64,000 nucleotides of DNA from positions 34,564 to 98,563 of IMG/VR virus record IMGVR_UViG_3300023178_000019; one strand, given 5' to 3'. A model generated the notes under the pieces. The model was not told the DNA's origin and ran no database searches. It worked only from the letters and a program-made list of their open reading frames with translations. Shown piece by piece: positions 5,344-54,562 of the stretch (within the stretch, counting starts at the first letter, position 1; each line of letters begins with the position of its first letter). The translations under genes and the position numbers were made by a program. Source of the DNA: a virus.

Positions 5344-6447
5344 ATGCCAAGACTTAGCTTATATAAACCCGAACGTGGTAACGATTTTAACTTCCTAGAT
5401 AAACAAATTCTAGAGATGTTTACTGTTGGTGGTACAGACATACATGTATACAAATATATCGGTACTGATGACGGAACAACCGTTAAAGATCATACTCAAA
5501 TACAAGATTTAATGTTTCTTGAAAATCGAGATAGAAAATACGATCAAGATATTTACAGACTTAGAGGCATATACAATGTACAAGATCAAGATTTTGATTT
5601 AAGTCAGTTTGGTTTGTTTTTAAGCAACGACACATTGTTTATGACAGTTCATATACGCAGCAGTGTTGAAACTATTGGTAGAAAAATTATGCCTGGTGAT
5701 GTATTTGAGTTGCCGCATTTAATAGATGAATATGCAGAAAATGATGCCAGTGTTGCTCTTAAAAGATTCTACGTTGTAGAAGATATTAATCGTGCTGCTG
5801 AAGGATTTTCACAAACATGGTATCCGCACTTATATCGTGTAAAACTAAAACAAATATACGACGGACAAGAATATAAAGATATTTTAGATTTACCAGCAAG
5901 TGAAGATGCGCCCGATGGAGATACTTTAAGAGATATATTATCTACATACGAAAGAGAAATGAATATTACTACAGGAGTAATACAAGAAGCAACAGAAGAA
6001 ACTCAAAAAAGCGGATATGATATCAGTCATTACTTTTCAGTATCCGTTGACGACAACGGTATAGTAGAATTAACTGAAACAAAAGACGCAGACGGTTTAT
6101 CCGAGATGGCGCCGCCTGATAGAGCAGGATACAAAGGATATATTATTGGTGATTCTATTTCACCTAATGGAGAAGCATTTGGCTTTGGAGTTCAGTTTCC
6201 GGCAGAGCCAGAAACTAATGATTATTTTTTAAGAACAGATTTTTTACCTAATAGATTGTTTCAATTTAGAAATAATAAATGGAACAAAATTTACGATGTT
6301 AAACGTGCATTTGTTTACGGTGCAGATGAAACTAATACCCAGCGTGGCACATTTATTAATAATACCAATACTAATAATATAGGTGGCGAAGTAACCGAAG
6401 AAAGACAAAGTATTTCTCAAGCACTAAAACCTAAGGCGGATAACTAA
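5344..6447 (+). CDS. gp14: Neck/head-completion protein (T4 gp14-like) with C-terminal extension
   Basis: FDLSQFGLFLSND..F....PGDVFELPHL motif and position between gp13 and gp15. Start placed at MPRLSLY, 5 nt after TAAATA. Confidence 0.7.
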   Translation: MPRLSLYKPERGNDFNFLDKQILEMFTVGGTDIHVYKYIGTDDGTTVKDHTQIQDLMFLENRDRKYDQDIYRLRGIYNVQDQDFDLSQFGLFLSNDTLFMTVHIRSSVETIGRKIMPGDVFELPHLIDEYAENDASVALKRFYVVEDINRAAEGFSQTWYPHLYRVKLKQIYDGQEYKDILDLPASEDAPDGDTLRDILSTYEREMNITTGVIQEATEETQKSGYDISHYFSVSVDDNGIVELTETKDADGLSEMAPPDRAGYKGYIIGDSISPNGEAFGFGVQFPAEPETNDYFLRTDFLPNRLFQFRNNKWNKIYDVKRAFVYGADETNTQRGTFINNTNTNNIGGEVTEERQSISQALKPKADN

Positions 6448-19105: not shown

Positions 19106-22100
19106 TTATCTGCTTAAGAAGTATCCAAGTGCTACTGGAGCTCCATCAATACCACCTGTAAAATTCATTTTTGCTTTAATATTTAGCTGTCCGCCACTTG
19201 TAGTTGTTATTTCATCATTTGCAATGAATACAACACCTGCTGTAAGTGTGTTAACGTTCAAGCTACTCTGACCGCCACCAATCTGTGCTGTAATGTAGCT
19301 CTTAATTGCACGTTGCGTTGGAACAATACTATCACTATTTTCAGTAAAGAATGGATCTGTACTGAACTGTGTAATAATTGCTGATCCAATACCAACAGCA
19401 ATACCACCAAGTTGCAATGACTGCAAGCCTGCTAAGTTAAACGCATCAGCATCCAACGTCGCAGTACCTGTTGACTGTTGAACTCCAAACAGTCCGCCAA
19501 CGTTAAAGTTACCATCTTGGTCAGTACTTGTAAAGAACACTCGACCACCGCCACTACTTAATTGTTGTCTATTAATATCTGCTGTAGTAATATCAACAAA
19601 TGGATAGTTCGTTTTAGCTTGGTTTCCTGTACCAATATACAAGAAGTCATGTCCAGTTAGTCGTACTTGTGAGTATTTGTTAGTTGTAACAACTCTTGTA
19701 CCATCTTTTGGTGCATTTAATGTTACTAGTCCTGGACTAATTTGGAAAGTTGCTGTATAACTTCCAGGTTGTCCTATAACATTACTAATTGTAACTAGTT
19801 TGTAATATGATCCAGGAATATTATCAAACTCAACATTTGATCCAGGTTCTGGTAATTCAAACAAGCCTCTTAGTGCAATAAATGTGCTTGGTTGATACAA
19901 GTCTGCGTTACCGTCGCCGCCTAGCTCTGCTGTTGCTGTTGTATAACCTGCACCTCTATTAGTAAATGTTGGGTTAGCTAACGCACCATTTCTAATTCTC
20001 GAATTAACAGCTACATCGATAGTTGCGTTCGGATCGCCAATTGTTGCTTTTGGACTTCCTGCAAATGTTGCTGTACCTATAGCAGTTGGTGCTACAGTTT
20101 CAATATCAAAACTTGCTCCTCCATCAAGTAAGCTAATTTCTATATCTGTTCCAGCTATTGCCGAAATGTAGTACTTGACTTCGGAATCAATACCAATTGC
20201 TGCTAAACCGTCTCCGTCAAAGTTGATAGGTTGTCCTACAAACAAGTTAGACACTGTGTTTAGTTCAATTGTGTTTGGTGCAGTTGTACTTACAATAGAA
20301 CCTTGTGTAAATCCTGAACCCGGTTCTCTTAATGTAAATGCTACAATAGAATCTGTATCTACATAAGTTCTACCATTTGGTCTAGCACCAGTTTCAATCC
20401 ACTTTGCACCATTGCTGCCGCTACTAGTAACAGCAGCCCAGATTGGAACATTACTTGGATTACCAAATGCTACCGCTGCAAACCCAGCAGTATCACCTGT
20501 AGTTCTATCTGTCCAAATAACACCGTCTTGTGAAGTTGCAAAAGTACCTCCAATTGGTCCTGATGCTAAAAATAGTCCTTGACCATATTGTACATCACTC
20601 CATCCTGATGAACTAATATTAGCAAGTGATGTTGATCCTGCTGACCAGTTTTGACCAAAGTCATAACTTATAGCCTGTTCACCTGCTGAACCAATTGCAA
20701 CAAAACGTCCATTACCGTATGCAACCTTCATCCAATTAGTTGAAGAACCAGGTAATGCGCCACCTACAGTCCAAGTAATACCGTTTGAGCTATAAGACGT
20801 ATATCCGTTATCGTTAATAGCAACAAATGTTGTACCACCATATGCTACACTTACAAAAGTACCTGCAGGTGGTGTAGTATTATCACGTGATACCCAGTTT
20901 TCGCCGTCTGTTGATGTTCCTGCTGATCCTGATCCGCCTGTACCACCAACTACAACCCATACACCGTTACCAAATGCAATATCATTAAAGTTTGAATTTG
21001 GTAGTGCTGAACCTGCTGCCCAAACAGCGCCAGGAGCATCTGTTTGTGTTAAGTATGCATTATTAGTTGATCCAGGAGCAATAGCAACCCATCTAGCATC
21101 TTCATCAGTAATTGTTACTGTTGGTTGTGAAGTATAACCGGAACCTCTAAGTAAAATACCATCATTATCTTCGTCAATAGTAATAGTTGCTACACCTCTG
21201 TTATCAAGTGTTGCAGTTACTTCAGCTTGTACTGAAGCTCCTCCGCCTGTGATAGTTACAGTTGGAGCAGTTAAGTAGTTATTACCTTTTGTGTCAACAA
21301 TAATTTCAGTAACCTTGTCTGTTTCAGCAGTTACTGTCGGTGCTTGTGAATAACCTGCACCAGTACTTGTAATGATAATCTCTTGGATAATACCGTCTTT
21401 AACTGTTGCAACAGCACTTGCGCCGCCGCCACCTGCTGTTGGCGTAAACACAATAGTCGGAGCAGTTACAAAACCAGTGCCGCCATTAATTACATTTACT
21501 CTTGCAATCTGTGTCGGACCTGGTAAACCAATACTATTAATTTCACCTAGCTCTGCTTCAAGTATTGCACCTGAACCACCTAGTCCGCCGATAACTGCTG
21601 TTGCTGTTGCTCCTGTGCCGCCGCCAAATGCGCTTGCACTCCAGTTACCTGTTGCTGGTAATACACCAGCTTGTACCCAAGTTTTACCATCTAATGAGTA
21701 ATCAGTTTGTGTACCATTATTTGGTAATGCTATATATCTACCCATTGCAAAATCAACTCTATCAAAACCAATAGCGTCTGCTGTAGTAGTATTATTTGCA
21801 GTAAATCCTGGCTCTGTATAATGTACTGACGGTTCAATAGTATAACCAGTTGTTAAGTCTAGCCCTGCTACTGCTGCTTTACCTGGAATAACATTATCCC
21901 AACCAGCTGTATACATTGCAACACTTTGACCTGTTGTAGTTATTAGTGTTGCTGCTGCTCCTCCAACGGAATCACTTAGCTGAATAGTGCCGTCTAAGTT
22001 ATTTGTAATAACGTAGTAAACATTGCTAGGTGAATTACCTTCATCTAAACCGCCTACACTTGCATTTAAGTAAACTGGATCATCTACGCTAAGATGCTCA

Positions 22101-25100
22101 TAGTTTCCAGTTATAGTAACAATGTTTGTCGTTGCAGTTGTAGCAGTAATTGTAAATGGCTCAATGCTTGGTTTATAAACAGTTGCATTTTTAGTACCAT
22201 TATTAAATCGTAATATCTTAGCATACTGTCCTACACCTGAACCTGCTGTAATTTGTACATTCATTCCTGAATATGCATTACTTAGAGCAAAGTCAGTAGC
22301 AGCTAGTGTGATATATGTTGGATCGCCGCCTTGCGCAACGTTTTGAGCAGTTACATAATCCTCACCGCCGATACCGTTGCCATCGTTTAAATCGATGATA
22401 CGTGTTTCAACAACAGCACTATCTCTAAATTCATCATCGTCTGCTGCTGCATTAAATCCTGTACCACTGATTGCAAATTCTGCATTGGTGTAATCTCTAC
22501 CAGCGTTGCTGAACTCAAATCCTAGAACTTCTTCTTCTCCGTCTGTTGCTACACTATATATTGTTGCTTCTTGTGATAAGTTATCAACTATTGCTGTAAT
22601 TGGTTCTTCACCTGTGTCAGTACCTTCAGCAATAACACCATATGTACCATAAGATGAGTTACCATTTGTAGCACGAATACGTCCGCCAAAGTCTGCTAAG
22701 TAACCTGAATAGTTATAGTATGCGAACACAGAAACAAGTTCTGTTAATGAGTTGTTACCGCTACACCATACGCCAATACCATCACTTAGTACTTGTGTAA
22801 AGTCGTTTGAAACAATAGATCTGTTACCGCCTGCGTGTAACGCACCGTCAATTTTACAACCAACACAACCAACACCAAATGTTGTTACGTTTTGTACATA
22901 ACAAGATTTGTTAGTTACCCATGCTTCGGTATCATTTGGACCAAACCCTGGATCAAGTGATACATAAGAGCCTGCTGTTGGACGTCTTGTTCCAAAGTCA
23001 TTAAGTTCTGTTAAGTTTCCACGTAGTCCATTAACTGTTTGGTTACGTACACCAGTTGCGTTTCTTACATGATACATATCTGATTTTTCAGAACCATTAA
23101 CCGCATTTAAGTATAGCTCACCTGCTTTCCAAACTTTGTGATTTCCTGGATATTGTAAATCGTATACAATAGCATCAATATAACGCTCCATGTCTCTACG
23201 GCATAGAGCAGGATCATATGCATATCTAGCAACACTAGATCCAGAAGCTACATCAAGTACTAGAGGTTCGCCGCCTCTGGTATCAGAAATTTCAACACCT
23301 GTTGTATCTACAATAGATGAAACATAATAAGTTTGTCCTGCTACTAGTTCGCCAAATGCATTTTCGTCAAACACAATAGGATCGTTAACTATTAAGTTGT
23401 GGGCACTAGTGAATCTAATAGTTCCTGGAGAACCTTCAATGTCAGTTACAGTTCCACCATAACTTTGTGTGATCCAAGCTGTTGCCTCGTTTGCTAAGAA
23501 GTTTCTATTTGCTTTAAGTATATCAACAGCATTGATTGTTTCTGTATCACCGAAGTACGTAATAGTTCCATGAATTTCTGGAGTGTTTCCGTTACCTTTG
23601 TCTAGCATATTAATAATAATATCCATTAACGAATTAGTACGCTTTTTAGCTAATGCACTACCGTCAATGTATGTAGCAATTACATTTTTTAGTTCTCTAT
23701 AAGATTGTACAGTAGCATTCTTTTGCGCTCCTAAAACTAAGTCTGCTTGTGTACCTCTATAGTATGCCTGTGCAACAATTTGTGTTAAGTAGTTGGTGTT
23801 ATTCATCATATCTCTACCAACTGCTTCTACAATATAACCTACATCTCTTTCACACTTAGCTACATCATAGTCAAGTGTTGGATACTTATCTGCAATAAAT
23901 GATGTAATAGCTGCCTTAATTGAAGATAAAGAACCAGTTAAGTTTGTGAACTGCTGTTGTAATGTTCCAGAAACACCAGTAATGCTACCTGTTTGATAAA
24001 TGTATGCAGTAGCAATTATATCGTTTTGATCATCTGCTTCATAAGTAGGTCCATTAAAGTATCCTGACAAAGTAAACGTTGTTGGATTAACAATGGACTT
24101 AACATAGTATGTTTCAAAGTCTTGGAACTCGTCTAAGAATTGGACAATGTCGCCTACACGTAAGTTGTGATTAACGTCACAAATAAACCCATTACTAGAT
24201 ATGCCAGTTACTGTAACACGAGGTCTTAATTGTTGATCGTTTATGCTATCATAAACTATTGTCATTAATTCTTCAACTTTAGCTAAAGATCCGGCATCAC
24301 CTACTGGCTGAAGTGAATCTCTTATTACTGGTTCAACATATCCTTGTAATGGTCCTGGACTTACGGCACTGTTTACTGCTAATCCAGTAACAATTTGTTT
24401 TGCATAATCATATGCAGCAAGTGTAGCAGTTTTCTCATCTTCGCTAATAACTAATTCATTATCACCGTTAATGTCTTTCTGATAGTAAAATTCTGCAAAT
24501 TTTACTGATGCATAATTACTGTTATAAGTTAAATCATATCTTAATGCATCAACTAACATTCCAACATCTCGTTCACACTTGGTTTGATTATATGTTAGTG
24601 ATGGATACTCTTGATTTAAAAACTCAATTACTTCAGCTGTTACATATGCTTTATTTTCCCAAATAATGCTTGCTGCTGCAACATCTGCTGTGTCAGCATC
24701 ACTAGGTTCAACCCATTTAGCAACTGGAATTTTGCCGCCGTTAATGTAATTTGTTAAGTCTTCAATTAATAAGTTTACTGAAGCGTTTGCTGATACTGTT
24801 GCAACACGTCTTACTTTTTGTGCCATAAACTCCATGCTACCAACAGTTGCATATAGTTCATTATTAACAACTTCTAAAGCAGATGCAATAAGTCTATAAT
24901 AACTCATTCCAGCTTTTGTAGTTGCAAAGTTTGATCCGGTATATAAATCTCTAGCAAGTGCATCAACAATTAACCCTGCATCACGTCTGCAAGTATCTTG
25001 ATTGTATTCTAGTTCTTGATGGAATTTTTCTACCCAAAACACAACATCTTCAACAATTTCATTTTTACGATTTAAAATTCTATTATACGCTGTTGTTGTT

Positions 25101-33300: not shown

Positions 33301-36300
33301 CTCCATATTAGCAGTTGTATCTGCTTCTAAGAAGCTAGTTTGATCTGGATAGTTTAATGTAAATGGCGGAATTTCTCCTGTTAATACAATCGGAGAATCA
33401 TCTGGATCCTCAATGTTTACGTTTGATAACGGCCATACAGCACCGCCTAGTGATGTCGAAATTTGGATTGTTCTGTCGTCAATTACGTCAATAATATAAT
33501 AATCAAAACCAACAATAACGCCGCCAAATGTTGTACCACTAAAGTTAATTTTTTGTCCTATACGTAATCTAGCAGTACTGTCAACGTACATGTAGTTATT
33601 TAAATCTCCTAATGTACCTAAAACATTTACTCCGCTTTGTGAAGAACTTAGTACGTCTATATTATAAAATGTAGGTGTAAATTCTATTTTTTGTCCTACA
33701 AAAATTCCATGAAAATCTGTATTAGGTCCAAATATAAGAGTATTATCAGCAGTGTTTACTGCTACAATTTCTTGCTGATCAAAAGATTCTTTAACAACAG
33801 ATGCATACTTAGTAACTGGATCATAATTTGAAATAATACCATATTGACCAGCTCCAATACCTGACTGTACAACTAATCTCATACCTTCATATTCTGTTGC
33901 TGTTGCTACTTCTGATTGTGCTAATATTAAAAGTTCTGTGCTGCCGCCTTGAGCATTATTTGACTGAATATTGTAACCTAAACCGCCTAATCTAACTGTT
34001 TCGCTTTCAAGAATTCTTGACTGGAATATTGATCCAGTTCTTACTTCGTCTGCAATTACTTTAACTCCTGTACCAGCACCTGTTATATTGATATTGGCAT
34101 GTACCGTTGGTGTACTGTCAGTATTTTCTACAAAATAATCTGGAGTATCGCCTATTAATATTTGAGCTCCGTAAAAATTTGTATACCCAGCAATACCGTC
34201 AATTCCTCGAGGATAAACTCGCATTGTTAAATTTGTATTTTGTGCTGTTTCGTCAAATATTGAATATGAAAGTCTCCACCAACCGTCTTCTAAGAAGTCG
34301 GCTCGAAGATCAGTTGGGTCATTTAAATTTCCTAATTGAGATAATGTTGTAAATTCCTCTGTATCAAAATTAAAACGACAACTATATGTTTTTTCTTCTC
34401 CTGGTGTAGGCGATCCACTAAAAATTCCTTCTAAATCAAAATAAGCAGTGTCTCCTTTTTTAGCATGAATACTAACATTATATTTTAATGCAGATCCTAA
34501 AGGAACTGTACCTTCATGATTAATTCCAGAAATTGCTGTAATACTCAAATCTTGCACTGTAACCGTAATATCATTTTCTGGTGATCGTCCGCCGAAATTT
34601 CGACCGTCTATTTGTATTTGATTACCAATAACATAACCGCTGCCGCCGTTATTAACTGTTACCTCATAGCTTTCAGCAAGAACTTTAACATCAAATGTTG
34701 CTTCAATACCAGAACCGCTAATATTTGTTCCCGCAACATTTGTATAAGTTCTTCCTTGAGGTCCAATACCAATTTGTTGTTCAAAATATGCACTGTCAGT
34801 TAGAGAAGTATTTGCAGTTACTCTCCAAGCAAATTCGTTTTCATAAGGAGTAGTATTTGCACGTATAACACTAATATTTGAGTCATTGGTCCAAACAGAA
34901 TCTAATAGATCGTTTGTATAAGTTAATAAGTTTGTGACCTTTTTAAAGTATTCTGATCCGCCATGTGTATATTGTATTTTTAATATTTCAGAATTTGCAC
35001 CTAACGCAGAAACTGCTTCAGCTGTTGCTTCTCCTGATTTGTTGTTAATTATACCAGTTGCAGGAGTTTCTGAATCGTCAAATCCTTCTGAAATAACACC
35101 AAAAGTACCATAAGATGAGTTACCATTTGTTGCACGAATTTTTGCTCCGTCTTCTGCAAAGTAACCTGCATAGTTATAATAAGAGAACACAGAAACACAT
35201 TCTGTTAATGCATCGCCACCTTTACACCAAATACCAATACCATCTGAAATAATTTGTGTAAAGTCGTTTGATACCATTGAACGATTTCCGCCATTGTGTA
35301 ATGTTGAGTCAATTTTACAACCAGTACATCCTTTACCGAACGTAGTTACGTTTTGAATATAAGGAGATTTATATGTAATCCAGGCTTCAGTATCGTCTGG
35401 TCCTTTGCCTGGATCAAGTGCTACATATGCACCTCCAGTTGGACGTCTTGTTAAGTATTCGTTTTCTTCTGTTAATGTACCACGTAAACCTTTGACAGTT
35501 AAATTTCTAATACCTGTAGCGTTACGCACACGGAACATATCTTTAAGAGCATTACCTCCATATACATACATTCCGCCAATGTTTGTTTGTAATTCAACAC
35601 TTGGTCCGTCTGGTACTTCAGAAACACTGAATGTTGTATCAGTAATCGAGTCGCCAATAACATAATAAGTTTGTCCTGCAACAACATTACCAATTATAGT
35701 ACTAATTTCGTCAATTGGATTTAATGAAACAAATTGTACCGGAGAATTATGTACCATATTACGTGTTGATCCTACAGTAAACACATTAATATCGCCTGTT
35801 GTTCGTGTACATAAAGTATTAATAGGATTAGCAGGTTGTATTGTTGTACCACGTAGTTCGTCACCATTAATTGCTGTGTTAGCAGGAACAACAATCGGAA
35901 GTTCTTCAAGATATGTTCCAGATTTTACATTAATTGTACAGTATGCTCCTTCGTTTGCAGACGGAATGTTATCAGGTGATCCTGCAACAAATGATTCTAC
36001 ATATATTCTTTCAAGTGCTCTGACTATTGTAAGTGTATCGCTTTCTAATGTTAAACTACTATTAATATATTGTGTTACAATGCCATTGTCTAATGGCCTT
36101 CCTAGTCTATCAGATTCTAGCTGTTGATAACTTGTTGACGACAGTGTGTTTGTAAGAGCTTTTTCAATATTATTAAATAATTCTACAAAGTAAACTATAA
36201 AATAAGGTGCTTGTGCTGCAATTTCTTCGTTAGTAAACTTGTTTGTACTTTCTAAATCAAAATAAGAAAGGGCTGCTGCAACAGTTTGAGAGTTGCCACC

Positions 36301-38963: not shown

Positions 38964-41900
38964 TTATCCTAATACCAATACTGTTGCTAGTGCAATTTCT
39001 TCTGCATCACCTCTAGTAATACCTGCTCCAGAACCCGCAACAGATACCCAGTTACTTCCGTCAAATATTTCAACACGACTATCGTCAGTATTAAAACGCA
39101 TTTGTCCTACTTCAACAAATCCTGCAGGAGGTCTATCAACGCTTGCACCTACTGGAATAACAACACCATATGTGCCGTCAAACTTTACATAACCGTTTCC
39201 AGTATTTTCAAATAATGTAACACTGTCACTTACTGTGTTTGTAATTGTAGAACTTTCAAATGCAAAATTGTCAAATCTTACTCTACCTGCACCGTTTGCA
39301 GACAAACGCAAATCAGTGTCAACTGTGCTAGTTGTTATAACATTGCCGTCGATTTCAACATCGTCAACAATCACTTTCGGTGCGTTTAATCCAGAATCGT
39401 TAACAGTTACAATAGTACTACCTTGAACATCAAATCTAATTACACCGTCATTAGCTCCTTCAGTTAACTCAGCAGTAACTTTTGTATCGCCGTCTAAATC
39501 TTCTACACCTTTTAGATTAATCCAATTTGTTCCGTTATAACCTTCAAAGCGTGATAAGTCTGTATTATAACGAACTTGTCCTGTTACTTCTGCAGGACGT
39601 TCTAATGTTGTACCTGCAGGTAATTTTAATGCACCTGTACCATTAATTATAATATTACCGCTACCAGGTGTTAAATTTAAATCATTAGTTGTAGTAATAG
39701 TAGATCCATTAACATCAAAATCATCAATAATAATAGATCCGGTTCCGTTTGCACGTAGTTCTAAATTACTATTACTTAATGTAGTAGTAATAAAATTGTC
39801 ATCAATTAATATATCACCTGTTGAAAATGAATTAGACTGTATACTATTTGAAACGTTAATATTTTGAACTGAAACTGTATTACCTACTGATAAATTATTT
39901 TCAATTAATAAATCGTTTTCAGGGATATAAACATTTCCTGTTCCGTTTGCACGTAGTTCTAAATTACTATTACTTTCAGTTGTAGTAATTTTATTACCGG
40001 TAACTTGTATATCTTCAAATTGTATAACACTTGCGCTAATAATAACTTCACCAGTTACATCTAGGTTACCAGTTAAATTAATATTACCTGTTTGAGTAGT
40101 ATTACCGGTATGTGTTACATTTCCTACAATATTAGTAGTTTTTAAATTAGTATTACCATTTACAGTTAAATCGTTTTCAATAACAACATTATTGCTCGGA
40201 ACAACTACTTCGCCAGTTCCGTTAGCACGTAATTCTAAGTTTGAATTAGTTTGAGTAGTTGTAATAAAATTATCATCGATTAATATATCGCCAGTACTAA
40301 ATCTGTTTGCAGTAATTGTTCCTGCACTATTAATATCTCCAACAGTAATTGTTCCTTCAACAATTAAATCGTTTGATATAACTAAATCATTATTAGGAAT
40401 TAATATTTCACCAAACTGTGTAGCTCTTAATTCTAAATCCGAAGTGCTAATTGTTGTAGTAATAAAATTATCATCAATTTGAATATTTTCAAATTGTGCA
40501 GCATCGGAAATAGTAATATTTCCAGTAATACCTAAGTTACCAGTTAAATTAATATTACCTGTTTGAGTAGTATTGCCTGTTTGTGTTACATCTCCTACTA
40601 TAGAAACACTTTGTAAACTTGTTGTTCCTTTAACTGTAAAATCTTCGTTTGCAAGTATATCATTATTAGGAATAAAAACTCGTCCAGTTCCGTTAGCACG
40701 TAAATCTAGATCGCTATTTGATTGAGTAGTTTCTATATAGTTGTCTTGTATTAAAATATTATCTGATGCAAAGCTGTCAGCTGTAATTTGTCCAACTAGT
40801 GTAAGATTATTAGCAGTAATATCGTTGCTAACTGTTAAATCATTTGTAATTTCTACATCATTATTTGGTACAAATATTTTTCCAGTTCCACTAGCACGTA
40901 ATTCTAAATCTGCATTTGAGCTAGTAGTTGTAATATAGTTGTCATCAATTAATATTTCTTCAAACTGTGCTGCACCAGTTATATCTACGTCTTGAGTTAC
41001 TGTAAGATTGCCATCAACAGTTGTATTGCCAGTTTGATTTAAATCGCCTACTAGAGTAAGTGTTCCGGTAACACTTGTATCTGACAAGGTTGTTGTTCCA
41101 CTTACTGTTAAGTTATTATCAATTTGTACATTATTACTTGGAACAACTACTTCGCCAGTTCCGTTAGCACGTAATTCTAAATCGCTATTAGATAAACGTG
41201 TTTCAATGTAATTTTCACGTATTTGAATATCGTCTACATTAATTTCATTTATGTATAAATTTTTCCAAGTTTTAGTTACAGTACCTAAACTATAAGTGCT
41301 TGCAGTTTTTGGAATAATGTCTGAGTCAATACCTGCAATAATTTGAATAGTGTCAGTTGCTTCATCACCAATTGTAATATTGCCTCCGATAGTAACATCA
41401 CCTGTTACATCAAGACTTCCAGTAACATTTACATCAGCATTAAGATTAATTTCACCACTACCTGCTGCAAAGTTAGCATCTTGTGTTAATGTTTCTACAG
41501 TGTTGCCGCTTATGCGCCAATCACCTGTTTCAATCTTAGTACCGTCAACAAAAGTAGTATCGCTTCCTGTAACAAATGTTACACCATTGTCTGTATTAAT
41601 TTCAAAATCACTTACTGCAAATGTTACACTACCGGTTTCTTGATTAACGTAGAATAAGTCTCCAACTCTAAAGTCGCCTTTGTGATCAACTGAGTTATAA
41701 CGTATTTTTGCACCTTGTGATTCAACAACTTCGTTTGCTTGGATAACAGTCTCGGTGTCATTAGTAACTTCTTTACCGTTGCCAATGTAAGCAAGGTTGT
41801 GTCCAATAGCATACATAATAACACCCGGACCTTGTCCAACAAGTCCAAAGTTACCGTAAACTGATGCAGAAGCAATTAAGCGTACTTCTGCACCAAATTC

Positions 41901-43697
41901 ACGTAAGTCAAAACTATCAATTGTTGTTGCTGTTGCTGTGCCGTCTGTAATGCTTTGTGGTGTTAAATCAAATCCGTCTAGTTCTAAATAATTGCTGATG
42001 TATAAGTCATTGCCGTCTACTTCATCAATTGTACCTATTAGCACAGTTGATGCGTCAGTTGAAGTAACTGTAAGCGTATTACCTTGTGTAAATGTACCTG
42101 TAACGCCGCTTAGTGTGAGTTTAGTTCTACCTGCTAGTCTACGTCCGTCTTTGCTATCGTAAGCGTACATAGAACGATTAGCAAAGTATGTGAAGCTGTT
42201 TAGCCACTCAACTCTAGCACCGTTAGTCATTGTAATTGCATCAACGCCTGGTGTAATAAATGTTGCTGAGTGGAATAGCATTGCAGTGTTTACGCTAGTT
42301 GCGCTACCATAAGCACCATCAACATAAGCGCCTTTACCTGCATCGCCTGCATTAAATCCTCTAGGATCTTCAACAGTTGTAGTGCTACCGTTTGTAATTA
42401 CAGTAATGTTTCTAATGTAAGGAGAACGACTTGATGCTTCGTAATCTGTTGCATAACGGAAGCCGTATCCGTTGTCTGGGAACGTTCTAGTGTCATTGTT
42501 GCAGCTAAATGTTAATCCGCTTAAGAAAACATCATTACCGATATTTGCTGTGCCACCTGCGTGTGTAATTTGTAGTACACCAGTTGTTTCATTGTAAGTT
42601 GCACCGGTTATGTTATAGTTAGCACCAAGTATTTCAATAGTTCCGCCACTAACATAAGTATGAGCAAAAGGAGCAGTACCAACATTAACAGTTGTAGTTC
42701 CTGCTGATGCACCTGTAACTTCAAAGTAGTTGCCTCCGCTATAAAAACCAGTTAGTGTTAAGTCTTCAACAGTAGTTTCGCCGTTAAGTAAAATAGCGTC
42801 ATTGTAACGTGTTTCTGTAGTTGGGCGAATAGATACACTACGAATACCTTCGCCTTTTAGTGTAACACCTTGTGGAACTGTTAAAGGAAATTCTTCTGTG
42901 TAATCACCTGGTGAAACAATAATAGTATCACCTGTAACAGCTACGCTTAGTGCATGTTTGATGCTTGCAAATGGAGCAAATAAATGATCACCTTGAGAAG
43001 CGTCATTACCATTTTCTGCAACATAATATACATTTCCGTGTACTAGGTTAAAATCAATATTACTAATATTAAGTTGATTAGAACTAACACTAGTAGCAAT
43101 TAAGTTTCTTGTCCAAACGTCATTCCATTGCTTATTAACATTTCCTAATGAATATGTATTATTCTGATCTGGAATGATGTCTGATGCAACTTCTGCATTA
43201 AAAATAACATTGTCTGTATCTGCATCACCAATTGTAATATTACCGTCTGCTGTAATATTACCTGTCGCATGTATGTTACCGTCTACATTTAAATCACTAT
43301 GTATTTGAACAATACCTGTTCCGTTTGGACGAATTTCTAAATCAGCATTTGAACTATTTGTTGTAATAGCATTGCCTTCAATATCAATACTATCAATGCG
43401 AATCTTGTTTAGTGAAACAACAGTATCTAGTGTTGCTAAGTTTAAATAAGGTTGTGTAGTACTAATAGTGTTACCTTCAATAGTAACGTCAGCTAGGTCA
43501 GCTCTATTAGTAACAATTAAGTCTGTGGTTTTAGTGGTTCCGTTAACATCTAACTCGTACTGAGGTGCAGTTGTCTTAACGCCGATACGCTGATTATTAA
43601 CATCTAGATATAGTAAGTCTGTCTCAAAGGCTAGATCGATCCCATTACGGATCAAGTTAGACTTTAAGAGCGGACCTGATATGCGACCAACAGCCAT
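38964..43697 (-). CDS. Large fibre-like virion protein (1577 aa) with SNxDLELRANGTG repeats
   Basis: About 9 repeats of DDNxITT..SN.DLELRANGTG, a beta-helix-like domain (YYVAENGND...PFASIKHAL...SPYIRNITV) and P.G....RP...G..R.NT motifs. Confidence 0.78.
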   Translation of the reverse strand: MAVGRISGPLLKSNLIRNGIDLAFETDLLYLDVNNQRIGVKTTAPQYELDVNGTTKTTDLIVTNRADLADVTIEGNTISTTQPYLNLATLDTVVSLNKIRIDSIDIEGNAITTNSSNADLEIRPNGTGIVQIHSDLNVDGNIHATGNITADGNITIGDADTDNVIFNAEVASDIIPDQNNTYSLGNVNKQWNDVWTRNLIATSVSSNQLNISNIDFNLVHGNVYYVAENGNDASQGDHLFAPFASIKHALSVAVTGDTIIVSPGDYTEEFPLTVPQGVTLKGEGIRSVSIRPTTETRYNDAILLNGETTVEDLTLTGFYSGGNYFEVTGASAGTTTVNVGTAPFAHTYVSGGTIEILGANYNITGATYNETTGVLQITHAGGTANIGNDVFLSGLTFSCNNDTRTFPDNGYGFRYATDYEASSRSPYIRNITVITNGSTTTVEDPRGFNAGDAGKGAYVDGAYGSATSVNTAMLFHSATFITPGVDAITMTNGARVEWLNSFTYFANRSMYAYDSKDGRRLAGRTKLTLSGVTGTFTQGNTLTVTSTDASTVLIGTIDEVDGNDLYISNYLELDGFDLTPQSITDGTATATTIDSFDLREFGAEVRLIASASVYGNFGLVGQGPGVIMYAIGHNLAYIGNGKEVTNDTETVIQANEVVESQGAKIRYNSVDHKGDFRVGDLFYVNQETGSVTFAVSDFEINTDNGVTFVTGSDTTFVDGTKIETGDWRISGNTVETLTQDANFAAGSGEINLNADVNVTGSLDVTGDVTIGGNITIGDEATDTIQIIAGIDSDIIPKTASTYSLGTVTKTWKNLYINEINVDDIQIRENYIETRLSNSDLELRANGTGEVVVPSNNVQIDNNLTVSGTTTLSDTSVTGTLTLVGDLNQTGNTTVDGNLTVTQDVDITGAAQFEEILIDDNYITTTSSNADLELRASGTGKIFVPNNDVEITNDLTVSNDITANNLTLVGQITADSFASDNILIQDNYIETTQSNSDLDLRANGTGRVFIPNNDILANEDFTVKGTTSLQSVSIVGDVTQTGNTTQTGNINLTGNLGITGNITISDAAQFENIQIDDNFITTTISTSDLELRATQFGEILIPNNDLVISNDLIVEGTITVGDINSAGTITANRFSTGDILIDDNFITTTQTNSNLELRANGTGEVVVPSNNVVIENDLTVNGNTNLKTTNIVGNVTHTGNTTQTGNINLTGNLDVTGEVIISASVIQFEDIQVTGNKITTTESNSNLELRANGTGNVYIPENDLLIENNLSVGNTVSVQNINVSNSIQSNSFSTGDILIDDNFITTTLSNSNLELRANGTGSIIIDDFDVNGSTITTTNDLNLTPGSGNIIINGTGALKLPAGTTLERPAEVTGQVRYNTDLSRFEGYNGTNWINLKGVEDLDGDTKVTAELTEGANDGVIRFDVQGSTIVTVNDSGLNAPKVIVDDVEIDGNVITTSTVDTDLRLSANGAGRVRFDNFAFESSTITNTVSDSVTLFENTGNGYVKFDGTYGVVIPVGASVDRPPAGFVEVGQMRFNTDDSRVEIFDGSNWVSVAGSGAGITRGDAEEIALATVLVLG

Positions 43698-51278: not shown

Positions 51279-51668
51279 TTAGATTGCAGTTAATACTAGT
51301 ACGTTTGCTGTTGAATCGTCAGTAACAGTCCATGTATAACGATTGTTATTAAAATCAAACATTGTACGGTTGTGTACTTTACGAATGTTTACAGCACTTT
51401 CTCCGGCTACAAAACCTTGTAGAACCATTTCGTTAGCTGCTAGTGATCCAATTGCTTTGTCAACTAGTGTACATACACCTGTGTTACCTGATGTTCCATC
51501 TGGATCATCGTGACAGTTAAATTTTGTTTCTGAGCGTTGTGATAAAATTACACCGTTGCCAACTGCTGCGTTAGCACCAATTTTACACATTACTGTTAGG
51601 TTATTACCTTCAGTACCTGCTGAACCTTCAGTAGCACCAAAGTATCTTTTGTTTAATGGGCGTCCCAT
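51279..51668 (-). CDS. Hypothetical late protein (129 aa), probably structural
   Basis: Strong AAGGAG RBS, own late motif (51760-51767) and terminator. Confidence 0.7.
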   Translation of the reverse strand: MGRPLNKRYFGATEGSAGTEGNNLTVMCKIGANAAVGNGVILSQRSETKFNCHDDPDGTSGNTGVCTLVDKAIGSLAANEMVLQGFVAGESAVNIRKVHNRTMFDFNNNRYTWTVTDDSTANVLVLTAI

Positions 51669-51774
51669 AATTATCTCCTTTGTTTAATCATTGCCGTTCT
51701 AGGGTCTACGCGGTGAGTTTCCGCATAAGTCCTCAATAGAGGCTCCTATATGACAATAGTATTTATCCAAAGAG

Positions 51775-51805: not shown

Positions 51806-52022
51806 ATAAGCAAAATAGGTAGGACTCGGTTACACCTACAAGCCGCGGACCAAATACCATTTCATCTCCGCAACAACCTGCTTCCGCTCGGTAGAGCGAT
51901 GTGACACTGCCTGTTTCCAGTACAACGCCTGGGTACCACCCCTAAGCAGTCAAGTTCGACGCTCTGGTAAACGCCTCTTCCTTGCACTATAAACATTGAC
52001 TAGCTAAGTCTTTGTTGCTTAT
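51806..52022 (-). ncRNA. Candidate structured non-coding RNA (~217 nt)
   Basis: GC-rich intergenic block between a sigma70 promoter and a terminator. Its 5' and 3' ends are complementary (AUAAGCAA/UUGCUUAU) and it contains multiple hairpins, including a GAAA tetraloop. Confidence 0.7.
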
Positions 52023-52056: not shown

Positions 52057-52138
52057 CCACTTTTTATAGAAAATTAATGATTTTCTGCAAGATTTTTTTT
52101 AAAAAGTGTGTTTAAATAATAGTTGAAAGGAGAGCATT

Positions 52139-52210
52139 ATGTGGACAAAACCTAGCTATACTGAAATGCGTTTTGGCTTTGAAGTTACAATGTATGTAAT
52201 GAACAAGTAA
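52139..52210 (+). CDS. pqqA: Pyrroloquinoline quinone precursor peptide PqqA (23 aa)
   Basis: Translates to MWTKPSYTEMRFGFEVTMYVMNK*, with the MW.KP leader, R.G.E and the E15-x3-Y19 core of PqqA. AAGGAG RBS lies 6 nt upstream. Below the ORF-track size cut-off. Confidence 0.93.
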   Translation: MWTKPSYTEMRFGFEVTMYVMNK

Positions 52211-52220
52211 AAATGTAGTC

Positions 52221-52258
52221 AAAAAAATAGGCCCCGTAGGGCCTATTTCTAGTTTTTT
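52221..52258. terminator. Bidirectional terminator between pqqA and the major capsid gene
   Basis: AAAAAAATAGGCCC-CGTA-GGGCCTATTT followed by a T-run. Confidence 0.85.
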
Positions 52259-52269
52259 ACAACTATAAC

Positions 52270-53445
52270 TTAGCTAAATGTTACGCCTGCGGCGATATCA
52301 ACTTTACCTAAGTAGTCAGCTGCGTTACCTAGTGATGACGCAGTGTTTGTAAGCTCAACATAACCATAACGTGTCATAAATGATACTGTTGGTTCGAATG
52401 TTGATGGATCTAGTACAACACCTGAGCTCATTAGTGGGATATATGGGCAGTAGAACGCTGCTGCGTCTGACTCGCTTGATCCTTTATAACCAATAAGAAC
52501 TGGTGCAGTATCTGATGCATATGTGTTAACATATACTTTCATTGCGTTGTTCAATGTACCAACCATTTTTGTGTTAGTTGGTGCTTCGAATGTACCTTCT
52601 GTTGTACGAGCGAACGCTGAAGTAGTTGCTGACTGTAGGATTGTTAGCGCGAATGGGCTAACAACTGCCCAGTTACCAGCACCACGTCTTGTACGCTGTG
52701 CAATCAAGTTTGATACTCTGTTGATTTGAACTGCTAGTGCAGCATGTTCGTCACCAACAAAAGTAGCTGTACCTGAAACGGCTGTTTGATCATAAGTTTC
52801 AGTAGCAGCGCCTGCTAGTGAACTTAGTGAGCCTAGTACTTCTTGGTCGATTTCAGCAGTAATCTCTTGAGCAAGTGCTGCCATGATTTCTGCTTCAACG
52901 TCAATACCGTGCTGTGATTGAGCATCTTGTGCCGCTTCGAATGTCCAGCGAGCTGATAGCTTTCTGGTTTTCGCTTCGACAGTTTGTTTCAAGATTTGGA
53001 TTGACATTCTGTTACCAGCCTGTCCTTCAAGTGCTGCTGTTGCCGCTGCGCGGTCAGTTGCTGCATCACCTGAATATCCTTCTGCAATCTTGAACGGTGA
53101 TAGTGCTTCTTCACCAGCAGTAGCTGAAGTGCCACCTGTGCTAGTAAAGTCGTCGCTATAACGTACTCTTAGTGTGTGGATTTGACCCACTGGACCTGTC
53201 ATTGGCTGAACACCAACCAACTCGTTTGCAATAACGGTTGGCATAACACGTCTGATAACTGGTAGGATAACTCTGTTTAGAGTTGCTACATTACCGGCAG
53301 AAGTTGCACCAGCTGTTGCTGATTCTGAAAGATACTTACGAGTATTTTCTAGAGTCGCTTCCATAACAGCTTTCTTGTTGCCTTTTAGGCCTTCAACAAG
53401 TGCAGTCTTAGTGTCCTGCCAGCGACTTTCTAATAGTTCTGACAT
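52270..53445 (-). CDS. gp23: Major capsid protein (T4 gp23-like)
   Basis: VGVQPMTGPVGQI, VEAKTRKLSARWT.E.AQD...HG.D.E.E, EI..EID.E, FYCPYIPL, FMTRYG. Confidence 0.96.
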   Translation of the reverse strand: MSELLESRWQDTKTALVEGLKGNKKAVMEATLENTRKYLSESATAGATSAGNVATLNRVILPVIRRVMPTVIANELVGVQPMTGPVGQIHTLRVRYSDDFTSTGGTSATAGEEALSPFKIAEGYSGDAATDRAAATAALEGQAGNRMSIQILKQTVEAKTRKLSARWTFEAAQDAQSQHGIDVEAEIMAALAQEITAEIDQEVLGSLSSLAGAATETYDQTAVSGTATFVGDEHAALAVQINRVSNLIAQRTRRGAGNWAVVSPFALTILQSATTSAFARTTEGTFEAPTNTKMVGTLNNAMKVYVNTYASDTAPVLIGYKGSSESDAAAFYCPYIPLMSSGVVLDPSTFEPTVSFMTRYGYVELTNTASSLGNAADYLGKVDIAAGVTFS

Positions 53446-53461
53446 TTTGATTTCTCCTATA

Positions 53462-54562
53462 TTATAATCCAGCTAGACGCTTAATGTCAATGACATTACC
53501 GTCTGCGCCTGCTTGTGAACTAACGTTAGTTTGCGAATATTCGCGGTTGCCTGTAACTTCTTTGCCTTCTGCTAAAACTGCCTTCTTCTTAGCCGGAGTA
53601 TTACCGTCGATTACCGCCGGTAGGTATTTGTCAAACGCAGACTGAAGTCTGTCTGTTTGTACTGATTCCAGTAAGTCTGTCATAATTTCACGTTGAGCTT
53701 TGCCTAATGGCGCAACTAAATCGTTCAATTTCTTTTCTCTCTTTGCAGATTCAATTAATACAGCTTTTTCTTTTACTGCTGACTCTGCAAGCACTTTTGC
53801 TTTGACAGCTAACGCTTTATTTTCATTGATCTGTTTATCTTTAGTTTCAATAACTTTCAATAATTTTGCAGTCTCTGATTTTTCGTTTAAGTAGCTGTTT
53901 GCATATTCTGAAGCAAAAGCTTCGAATACTTTACGACCGAAGTCGTTTTTACGTGCTGCTTCAATGTCATCTTTAAGTTGACTAATTTCTTTATTAAGAT
54001 TTTTACCAACTGTTTCTGACACCAAGTTTGCACTTTTAGCAACAAATTCTTTTTGAACTGCTGCAAATTTTTCTTTGGCTTCGCGTACAAGACGTACTTT
54101 AGTTTCAGCCAAGTCTTTTTTATCTTCGTAAAACTCTGCAATTTCTTTTGCAAGTGCTTCTACCACAAATTCTTCAAGTTGTGTGAACTTTTGTGCTACT
54201 GCTTTTTGATCTTCGTGAAGTTCGCTAACTTCTTTCTTTAGCGATTCTAATACAAAGTTTTTAAGTAGAGTTGCATTTTCACGTTGTGCAACAGCATATT
54301 TTGCTTTTGCTTCAGCTAGACCTTTACGATCTTCTGCAAACTCTGCAAGCTCTGAACTAAGACGCTCTTCTAATAGCTTGTCAATTGACTCTACCATAGT
54401 TTGTTTGTCATGTTCATATTTCTTTGCAAATTCTTCACGAAGTTCAGCTGTAGCTGCACGACGGTTTTCTTTAACCTTCGCGTTCCACGCTTCTTCGATT
54501 TCGTGACGCACTTCTTCTGAAACTACATCGTTTTCGAAAAGTGTTTTTAGTGCATCCAACAT
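53462..54562 (-). CDS. gp22: Prohead core scaffolding protein (T4 gp22-like)
   Basis: E/K/A-rich coiled coil between the protease and capsid genes; KVFEAF motif. Confidence 0.8.
   Translation of the reverse strand: MLDALKTLFENDVVSEEVRHEIEEAWNAKVKENRRAATAELREEFAKKYEHDKQTMVESIDKLLEERLSSELAEFAEDRKGLAEAKAKYAVAQRENATLLKNFVLESLKKEVSELHEDQKAVAQKFTQLEEFVVEALAKEIAEFYEDKKDLAETKVRLVREAKEKFAAVQKEFVAKSANLVSETVGKNLNKEISQLKDDIEAARKNDFGRKVFEAFASEYANSYLNEKSETAKLLKVIETKDKQINENKALAVKAKVLAESAVKEKAVLIESAKREKKLNDLVAPLGKAQREIMTDLLESVQTDRLQSAFDKYLPAVIDGNTPAKKKAVLAEGKEVTGNREYSQTNVSSQAGADGNVIDIKRLAGL

Follow-up and report, generated by a model that had tools for sequence, protein, structure and literature searches.

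A stand-alone pqqA gene of 23 codons sits beside the major capsid gene of a jumbo phage and, judging from its sequence and surroundings, is rather probably an auxiliary gene which would provide the PqqB-E enzymes of the host with the only component that is consumed in PQQ synthesis. The whole stretch of DNA analysed, called here the window, comprises 64,000 nucleotides and corresponds to the final 64 kb of a 98,563-base IMG/VR virus record. In this window pqqA appears to form a self-contained cassette, with its own promoter-like box, ribosome-binding site and terminator, inserted in the variable gap that follows the major capsid gene. The elements of the cassette and of its surroundings are the following:

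52139..52210, plus strand: pqqA coding sequence (23 codons and a stop codon), with the cross-link residues E15 and Y19 and matches to PF08042 and TIGR02107
52106..52133, plus strand: conserved 5' block made of the promoter-like TTTAAATA box, a leader and the ribosome-binding site, with 26 of 28 positions invariant in five contigs
52127..52132, plus strand: ribosome-binding site AAGGAG, 6 nt 5' of the ATG, read directly from the sequence
52225..52258, no strand assigned: hairpin terminator between the convergent pqqA and major capsid genes, stem 52225-52234 / 52239-52248
52270-53445, minus strand: major capsid gene, converging on pqqA
52056-52029, minus strand: sigma-70-like promoter, divergent from pqqA
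51809-52009, minus strand: manA-type RNA (RF01745), 49.8 bits for a gathering score of 55.2, E 1e-11
51801-51778, minus strand: terminator near the manA-type RNA
51666-51743, minus strand: freshwater-2-type RNA (RF02980), 45.3 bits for a gathering score of 49.9
5325, 14755, 16575, 30359, 38244, 48907 and 63766, minus strand: examples of ATAAATA boxes located 27-33 nt before structural and other genes

The preliminary description, made from the letters alone, had pointed to a 72-nt ORF and to the peptide it encodes, and both are found exactly as described at 52139-52210 on the plus strand. As it had suggested, the 23-residue product was compared with the profiles of the PqqA family: PF08042 gives 46 bits (cut-off 21.1, E 4.5e-12, model positions 1-19 of 19) and TIGR02107 gives 47 bits (cut-off 20, model positions 1-21 of 21). 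Both scores exceed the curated cut-offs more than twofold, far beyond chance, and by this measure the peptide is PqqA. The E-x-x-x-Y pair that had been recognized, E15 and Y19, occurs in the motif G-F-E-V-T-M-Y. No second match to a PqqA profile occurs across the whole 98.5-kb contig. The gene also proves to be the lone plus-strand gene it had been taken for, since it is the sole credible one between 11339 and 61306, all other credible genes of this interval being encoded on the minus strand.

The contig has a GC content of 35.9% and is rated 28% complete by CheckV which, for a contig of 98.5 kb, leads to a genome of about 350 kb. On one side, pqqA is neighboured by genes for the major head protein (phrog_138), the head maturation protease and the portal, and on the other side by minus-strand ORFs that have homologues in related phage contigs. 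The DNA of the capsid gene is 68-70% identical to that of jumbo phages of 310-380 kb, e.g., PBECO4, CBB and fHe-Yen9-04. The carrier is a Rak2-like jumbo phage of about 350 kb, and the genome in which pqqA sits is truly that of a phage. On the minus strand, the sequence TTGACA-18 nt-TATAAT at 53461-53490 agrees with the sigma-70 consensus at 12/12 positions; it ends 16 nt before the capsid start codon and lies within the end of the upstream scaffold-like gene.

Family searches of the 98.5-kb contig find none of the four genes pqqB, C, D and E, nor any PQQ-dependent alcohol dehydrogenase. Because the TIGR02111 search had no positive control, the search for pqqB-E was repeated by tblastn, using as queries the PqqB, C, D and E proteins of the verified operon of Methylovorus (L277); these queries matched 14-19 host loci but nothing on the contig or at any viral pqqA locus. 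The stand-alone nature ascribed to the gene is thus borne out by both types of search, and the extension beyond the window that the preliminary description had recommended returned no pqqB-E across 98.5 kb, i.e., about 28% of the genome. The genes for the pqq enzymes or for a PQQ-dependent enzyme could be located in the other 72% or so. A genomic link to pqqB, C, D and E is absent from the 98.5-kb contig, as it is for many orphan host copies.

With respect to its expression signals, the AAGGAG ribosome-binding site reported 6 nt ahead of the ATG is present, and so is the terminator thought to be common to pqqA and the capsid gene (gp23). The stem of this terminator is a perfect 10-nt inverted repeat and is followed by a T run extending to 52258 (plus-strand terminator scan). 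On the minus strand, the A run at 52221-52227 becomes a T run, so that the hairpin is followed by T runs on both strands and can also terminate the convergent capsid gene, whose stop is at 52270. The late-like motif supposed to be used across the window was confirmed in part: TTTAAATA is present at 52111-52118 on the plus strand, but the motif that recurs before the genes of the window is not TTTAAATA but ATAAATA. As window-wide motifs, neither TTTAAATA (16 copies for 12.65 expected) nor TAAATAATA (5 copies for 3.0 expected) was retained. Nine of the 16 copies of ATAAATA occur within 8-60 nt upstream of same-strand start codons, at 27-54 nt, in a zone which represents 1.6% of the sequence, and six of them cluster 27-33 nt upstream of starts. 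ATAAATA, which resembles the T4 late box TATAAATA, is probably the late-type promoter of the phage.

Before pqqA the box reads TTAAATA, which departs from ATAAATA by one mismatch; it lies at the usual distance, 27 nt, and by itself shows no enrichment in the window. The TAAATA core of the pqqA box is located 26 nt 5' of the ATG, as it is in the ATAAATA boxes of the structural genes, and a late-type expression of pqqA is plausible from the position of this box. The box belongs to the 28-nt block 52106-52133, which reads G-T-G-T-G-TTTAAATA-ATA-N-TTGAAAGGAGA and whose invariance was measured over five contigs encoding capsid proteins about 84-88% identical to that of the window; both flanks of the block diverge. 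Among the host pqqA leaders, TAAATA occurs at the same distance in a single case out of 126. Since the host pqqA genes are devoid of the 28-nt block, the block represents an expression signal from the phage side instead of a relic of the capture.

Structured RNAs occur on the minus strand next to the cassette. The manA-type RNA reaches values above the threshold at the syntenic place in related contigs, with 79.9 bits in L033, 78.5 bits in L343 and 56 bits in both L058 and L071. The freshwater-2-type RNA abuts the start of a 129-residue ORF (51279-51668, minus strand) and, because the motif is found with 52-77 bits at the same position in more than 10 related contigs, it is probably a conserved leader of the gene for this ORF. 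No RNA family of Rfam scores above noise over the pqqA ORF itself. In several relatives, a glutamine riboswitch aptamer (RF01739, 47-56 bits, gathering score 35) lies just past the terminator of the capsid gene (L046, 5234-5281; L343, 1309-1359; L336, 11452-11499; also L018, L033 and L071), followed in L046 by a small ORF; there is none in the window.

The distribution of pqqA among the closest relatives was assessed from 80 IMG/VR loci encoding capsid proteins 82-95% identical to that of the window, 62 of which extend for at least 400 nt after the capsid gene. The gene follows the capsid gene in a single one of these 62 informative loci (L046), which makes it an accessory gene and not a core gene. 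Depending on the relative, between 146 and 1764 nt separate the capsid gene from the conserved gene that comes next, which makes this gap a hot spot of small insertions. A scan of metagenomes with the shared 5' block yielded six further capsid-clade contigs in which pqqA directly follows the capsid gene. Two of them, L337 (138 kb) and L340 (116 kb), exhibit the layout of the window, with pqqA converging on the capsid gene and a common terminator; in L343, in L336/L339, which are of the same type as L046, and in L338, the cassette is co-oriented with the capsid gene. Whichever the layout, pqqA is flanked by the capsid gene on one side and by a manA-type RNA on the other. Inverted repeats at 52001-52017 and 52260-52276 were considered as a possible trace of an inversion and discarded, their 82% complementarity, including 9 perfect nt, being about what chance would produce within 650 nt.

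Compared with the pqqA of the window, L337 and L340 differ by one synonymous codon and L343 by three, the peptides being identical; L046 differs by five synonymous and two non-synonymous codons, and L338 by three and five, respectively. Retention of the ORF beside gp23 with a synonymous bias, which the preliminary description had singled out as worth looking for, is thus encountered in the six metagenome contigs, where the differences are mostly synonymous. Judged by the retained site, the mostly synonymous changes and the near-invariant 5' block, pqqA is kept under selection in related phages. The same phage group holds the gene at two different sites, since in the 44-kb contig G005 (L330-L332), which is syntenic with the first 30 kb of the phage contig (40-88% protein identity), pqqA occurs at another place, around 884-955, between the homologues of the genes located at 22749-24593 and 21625-22611 of the phage contig (G000). 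An 11-codon ORF, M-(H/Q)-R-L-L-E-T-Q-D-C-E, begins at most 5 nt after pqqA in two related jumbo contigs (L046, about 5532-5567; L115, in G005, about 960-995); its Arg, Leu and Thr codons differ synonymously between the copies, and neither the host loci nor the window contain it.

Beyond this clade, IMG/VR was searched with a degenerate pattern for G-F-E-V-T-M-Y, and at least 119 contigs match, each with a complete PqqA-like ORF in which the start, the W-x-x-P leader and the stop are properly placed. Among the matches listed, 112 viral copies of 23 codons comprise 102 distinct nucleotide sequences, and the viral copies differ from that of the window by a pS of 0.59 and a pN of 0.18, codons fixed by the pattern being excluded; the invariant residues P5, R11, G13, V16 and T17 are each encoded by 4-5 different codons in the viral copies listed. 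Much of this signal of purifying selection among the viruses at large could date from the time the gene spent in hosts, before it was captured repeatedly. The flanks of the genes from the at least 119 contigs fall into about 21 unrelated genomic contexts, and tblastn finds no pqqB-E in the flanks of the 119 contigs listed. Most viral copies possess an AGGAG-type site at the same place, and many are followed by a hairpin terminator.

In GenBank, the peptide is found with 96% identity in Venkman, 87% in P19250A and MEP301, 83% in MEP401/402 and 73% in four Melnitz isolates, and it occurs also in an uncultured Manatee Spring virus and in an assembly named 'Acinetobacter phage'. Five types of cultured methylophages thus carry a stand-alone pqqA and, in these as in the at least 119 IMG/VR contigs, most copies are unannotated. 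The gene is unannotated in Venkman (L321, MT375522, 9977-10045), where it is antisense to the whole early block, and in P19250A (L323, KX815270, 28085-28153); in Melnitz (L322, MZ577097, 76140-76205), a hypothetical ORF of 31 codons is annotated over it on the opposite strand. Gene callers miss pqqA, which accounts for its absence from the annotation of the methylophage records examined. Another IMG/VR contig of 72 kb (G007), which at 20% completeness derives from another large phage, encodes a full-length PQQ-dependent alcohol/methanol dehydrogenase (608 bits, cut-off 480) at 34049-35731 (C1; L324/L325), about 6 kb away from its pqqA at 41886-41958.

A degenerate DNA pattern for the core E-M-R-F-G-F-E-V-T-M-Y-V, run against a set of prokaryote genomes in which each species is represented once, matches no fewer than 120 loci. 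Among the 80 matches listed, 69 titles name Methylophilaceae or Methylophilales, ten carry higher-rank labels only and one is an Acidovorax MAG; the core-bearing genera among the matches listed include Methylotenera, Methylophilus, Methylovorus, Methylobacillus and Ca. Methylopumilus, along with others. Residues 8-23 of the phage peptide (TEMRFGFEVTMYVMNK) are identical to those of the two commonest variants of Methylophilaceae PqqA, from which it departs only at positions 6-7 of the leader. A complete pqqABCDE operon was verified in Methylovorus MM2 (L277), a host with the same peptide type. The methylotroph host previously suggested by a Methylophilaceae-type tail agrees with a core which, among these at least 120 loci, is almost confined to this family, and the host is most likely a Methylophilaceae methylotroph, as far as the peptide tells. 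The core would accordingly be a convenient marker when hosts are to be predicted for phages that have not been cultured, this jumbo phage included. The GC3 content was tried as a gauge of the residence time of pqqA in phages and abandoned because the spreads overlap (0.39 in the window, means of 0.35 for viruses and 0.42 for hosts).

PqqA is the stoichiometric substrate of PQQ synthesis, one peptide being used per molecule of PQQ. It is bound by PqqD and the radical-SAM enzyme PqqE cross-links Glu15 to Tyr19, after which proteases, PqqB and PqqC convert the cross-linked dipeptide core to PQQ. Devoid of PQQ enzymes on its contig, the phage must depend on the PqqB-E of its host. For the timing of expression, the processing by host enzymes and the benefit to the phage, we infer the following sequence of events. 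Once the phage has taken over transcription, the short-lived pqqA message and its peptide would run out first, the enzymes being expected to persist. Transcription of pqqA from a phage promoter, probably of the late type, would then keep PQQ going to the periplasmic methanol dehydrogenases, and the respiration linked to these enzymes, being sustained, may supply energy for the building of virions. Dehydrogenase molecules that are already present hold their PQQ stably, and catalysis by PqqE and PqqC is slow, so that extra precursor may add little per infection cycle unless new apo-enzyme is made. Methylotrophs keep several orphan copies of pqqA, and in a high-PQQ mutant of Hyphomicrobium two such copies are expressed 3.5-4.3 times more (PMC9851590). 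These data fit with the dosage of precursor being important.

The gene might instead be passenger DNA, a host pqqA captured by illegitimate recombination into an intergenic hot spot and of no use to the phage. The variable gap of 146-1764 nt after the capsid gene, which gathers assorted small elements in the relatives, the lack of pqqA in most members of the capsid clade and its location at another site in the related jumbo contig G005 all agree with such a capture. It is nevertheless difficult to explain without selection why the gene is retained over some 21 contexts and in five types of cultured phages; the ORF is intact in all 119 pattern-matched viral contigs listed, the near-invariant 5' block of the capsid clade is not of host origin and the differences between clade members are mostly synonymous, all of which makes a useless passenger unlikely. 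The coding-type substitutions weigh similarly on a role exerted by the DNA or the RNA and not by the peptide, e.g., as host-homologous sequence used in recombination or integration, or as a small regulatory RNA or terminator module. An exact run of 48 nt common to the pqqA of the window and a host copy and the location of the cassette among manA-type and freshwater-2-type RNAs would suit such a role, but fourfold-degenerate codons vary freely at P5, R11, G13, V16 and T17, a strong ribosome-binding site has been retained, the gene is embedded in the head-gene module, flanked by the major capsid gene and by downstream minus-strand genes, and the ORF lies outside any above-noise Rfam family; this role is the least probable of those considered. 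The idea of an integration site was likewise set aside in view of the coding-type substitutions and of the lack of any integrase-like match among the ten neighbouring proteins scanned.

The peptide could also act against the host as a decoy which titrates PqqD/PqqE, an idea already raised in the preliminary description, or undergoes abortive processing. The synthesis of PQQ would be lowered so that, e.g., SAM or reducing power is diverted or the metabolism of the host is shut down. A small ligand tightly bound by a chaperone could in principle compete with the host peptide. However, the phage peptide matches functional host peptides exactly at the two cross-link residues and throughout the core, so that it should be a competent substrate and not a dead-end ligand. 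Moreover, pqqA is paired with the full-length PQQ-dependent dehydrogenase of G007 (608 bits for a cut-off of 480) and with methanol dehydrogenase in Lake Baikal phages (PMC7678222), and these pairings favour the making of PQQ over its blocking; a decoy is, as a result, highly improbable. The supply of precursor to the PQQ enzymes of the host is the reading we prefer.

Combining all these data, we tentatively propose a broader picture, possible but less assured than the role of the individual gene, in which pqqA would be a near-universal and almost wholly unannotated signature of Methylophilaceae phages, from 35 kb to about 350 kb, that lacks pqqB-E in the copies examined. The rule would be that these phages bring nothing but the RiPP precursor that is consumed, the catalysts being left to the host. 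In the jumbo clade, domestication would have placed the gene under an invariant phage promoter block, at a constant location next to the capsid gene and with its orientation flipped among relatives, and the phage instead of the host would set the late supply of PQQ. Should host enzymes process the phage PqqA, phages would directly tune the supply of cofactor for methanol oxidation, the first carbon and energy step in abundant freshwater and marine methylotrophs, and pqqA would, if this is true, belong to the smallest type of auxiliary metabolic gene known, encoding in 23 codons a substrate and not an enzyme.

Viral PqqA is already published and widespread. Coutinho et al. (2020, Microbiome 8:163) described T4-like phages of Lake Baikal with 35% GC and predicted Methylophilaceae hosts, and proposed that these phage populations, which encode methanol dehydrogenase and PqqA, boost methanol oxidation (PMC7678222); for viral PqqA they put forward the role preferred here, an auxiliary gene raising the PQQ available to this oxidation. 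In a 2026 study of sediments, the phosphate-solubilising genes include viral pqqA, pqqD and pqqE. A search of the literature returned no published account of pqqA in cultured methylophages. With the idea in print since 2020, the window adds detail and not the concept; the new elements are the occurrence in a jumbo phage, the constant location next to the capsid gene, the conserved promoter/ribosome-binding block of the phage and the orientation flip among relatives.

The closest parallel is offered by the Baikal contigs VP_266 and VP_139 (PMC7678222), T4-like and of about 35% GC, on which PqqA occurs as it does on the 35.9% GC contig of the window with its T4-type head genes. They differ in that the Baikal contigs carry methanol dehydrogenase and one of them radical-SAM genes, neither of which is found on the 98.5-kb contig of the window, and the Baikal paper is devoid of any account of the signals of the cassette, of its post-capsid position or of its spread. 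Peptide deformylase was considered as a further tie to VP_266 and rejected, being absent from the contig of the window.

The orphan pqqA genes of Methylophilaceae chromosomes resemble the phage copy by their identical length and TEMRFGFEVTMYVMNK core. Just 19 of the 120 host loci listed have pqqB within the fetched stretch, and several genomes harbour multiple copies of pqqA. The phage peptide is distinguished by S-Y at positions 6-7, where most host copies exhibit A-A, and its gene by a phage-type 5' box, lacking in host copies, and by its location between phage head genes. The psbA gene of cyanophages encodes a structural protein of photosystem II with demonstrated expression and benefit. 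By analogy only, it resembles pqqA in that the phage would bring only a fast-turnover part of the energy system of the host and the host the rest; the product of psbA is a structural protein, whereas that of pqqA is a consumable peptide substrate whose expression and benefit in phages are predicted. The cultured methylophages Venkman, P19250A, MEP301, MEP401/402 and Melnitz share with the window a stand-alone peptide of 23 residues, 73-96% identical, without any pqqB-E, and in Venkman the gene is antisense to all of its neighbours, as it is here. These phages of 35-142 kb nevertheless belong to unrelated lineages and hold the gene in early or tRNA regions, whereas the pqqA of the window is carried by a Rak2-like phage of about 350 kb and resides next to the capsid gene.
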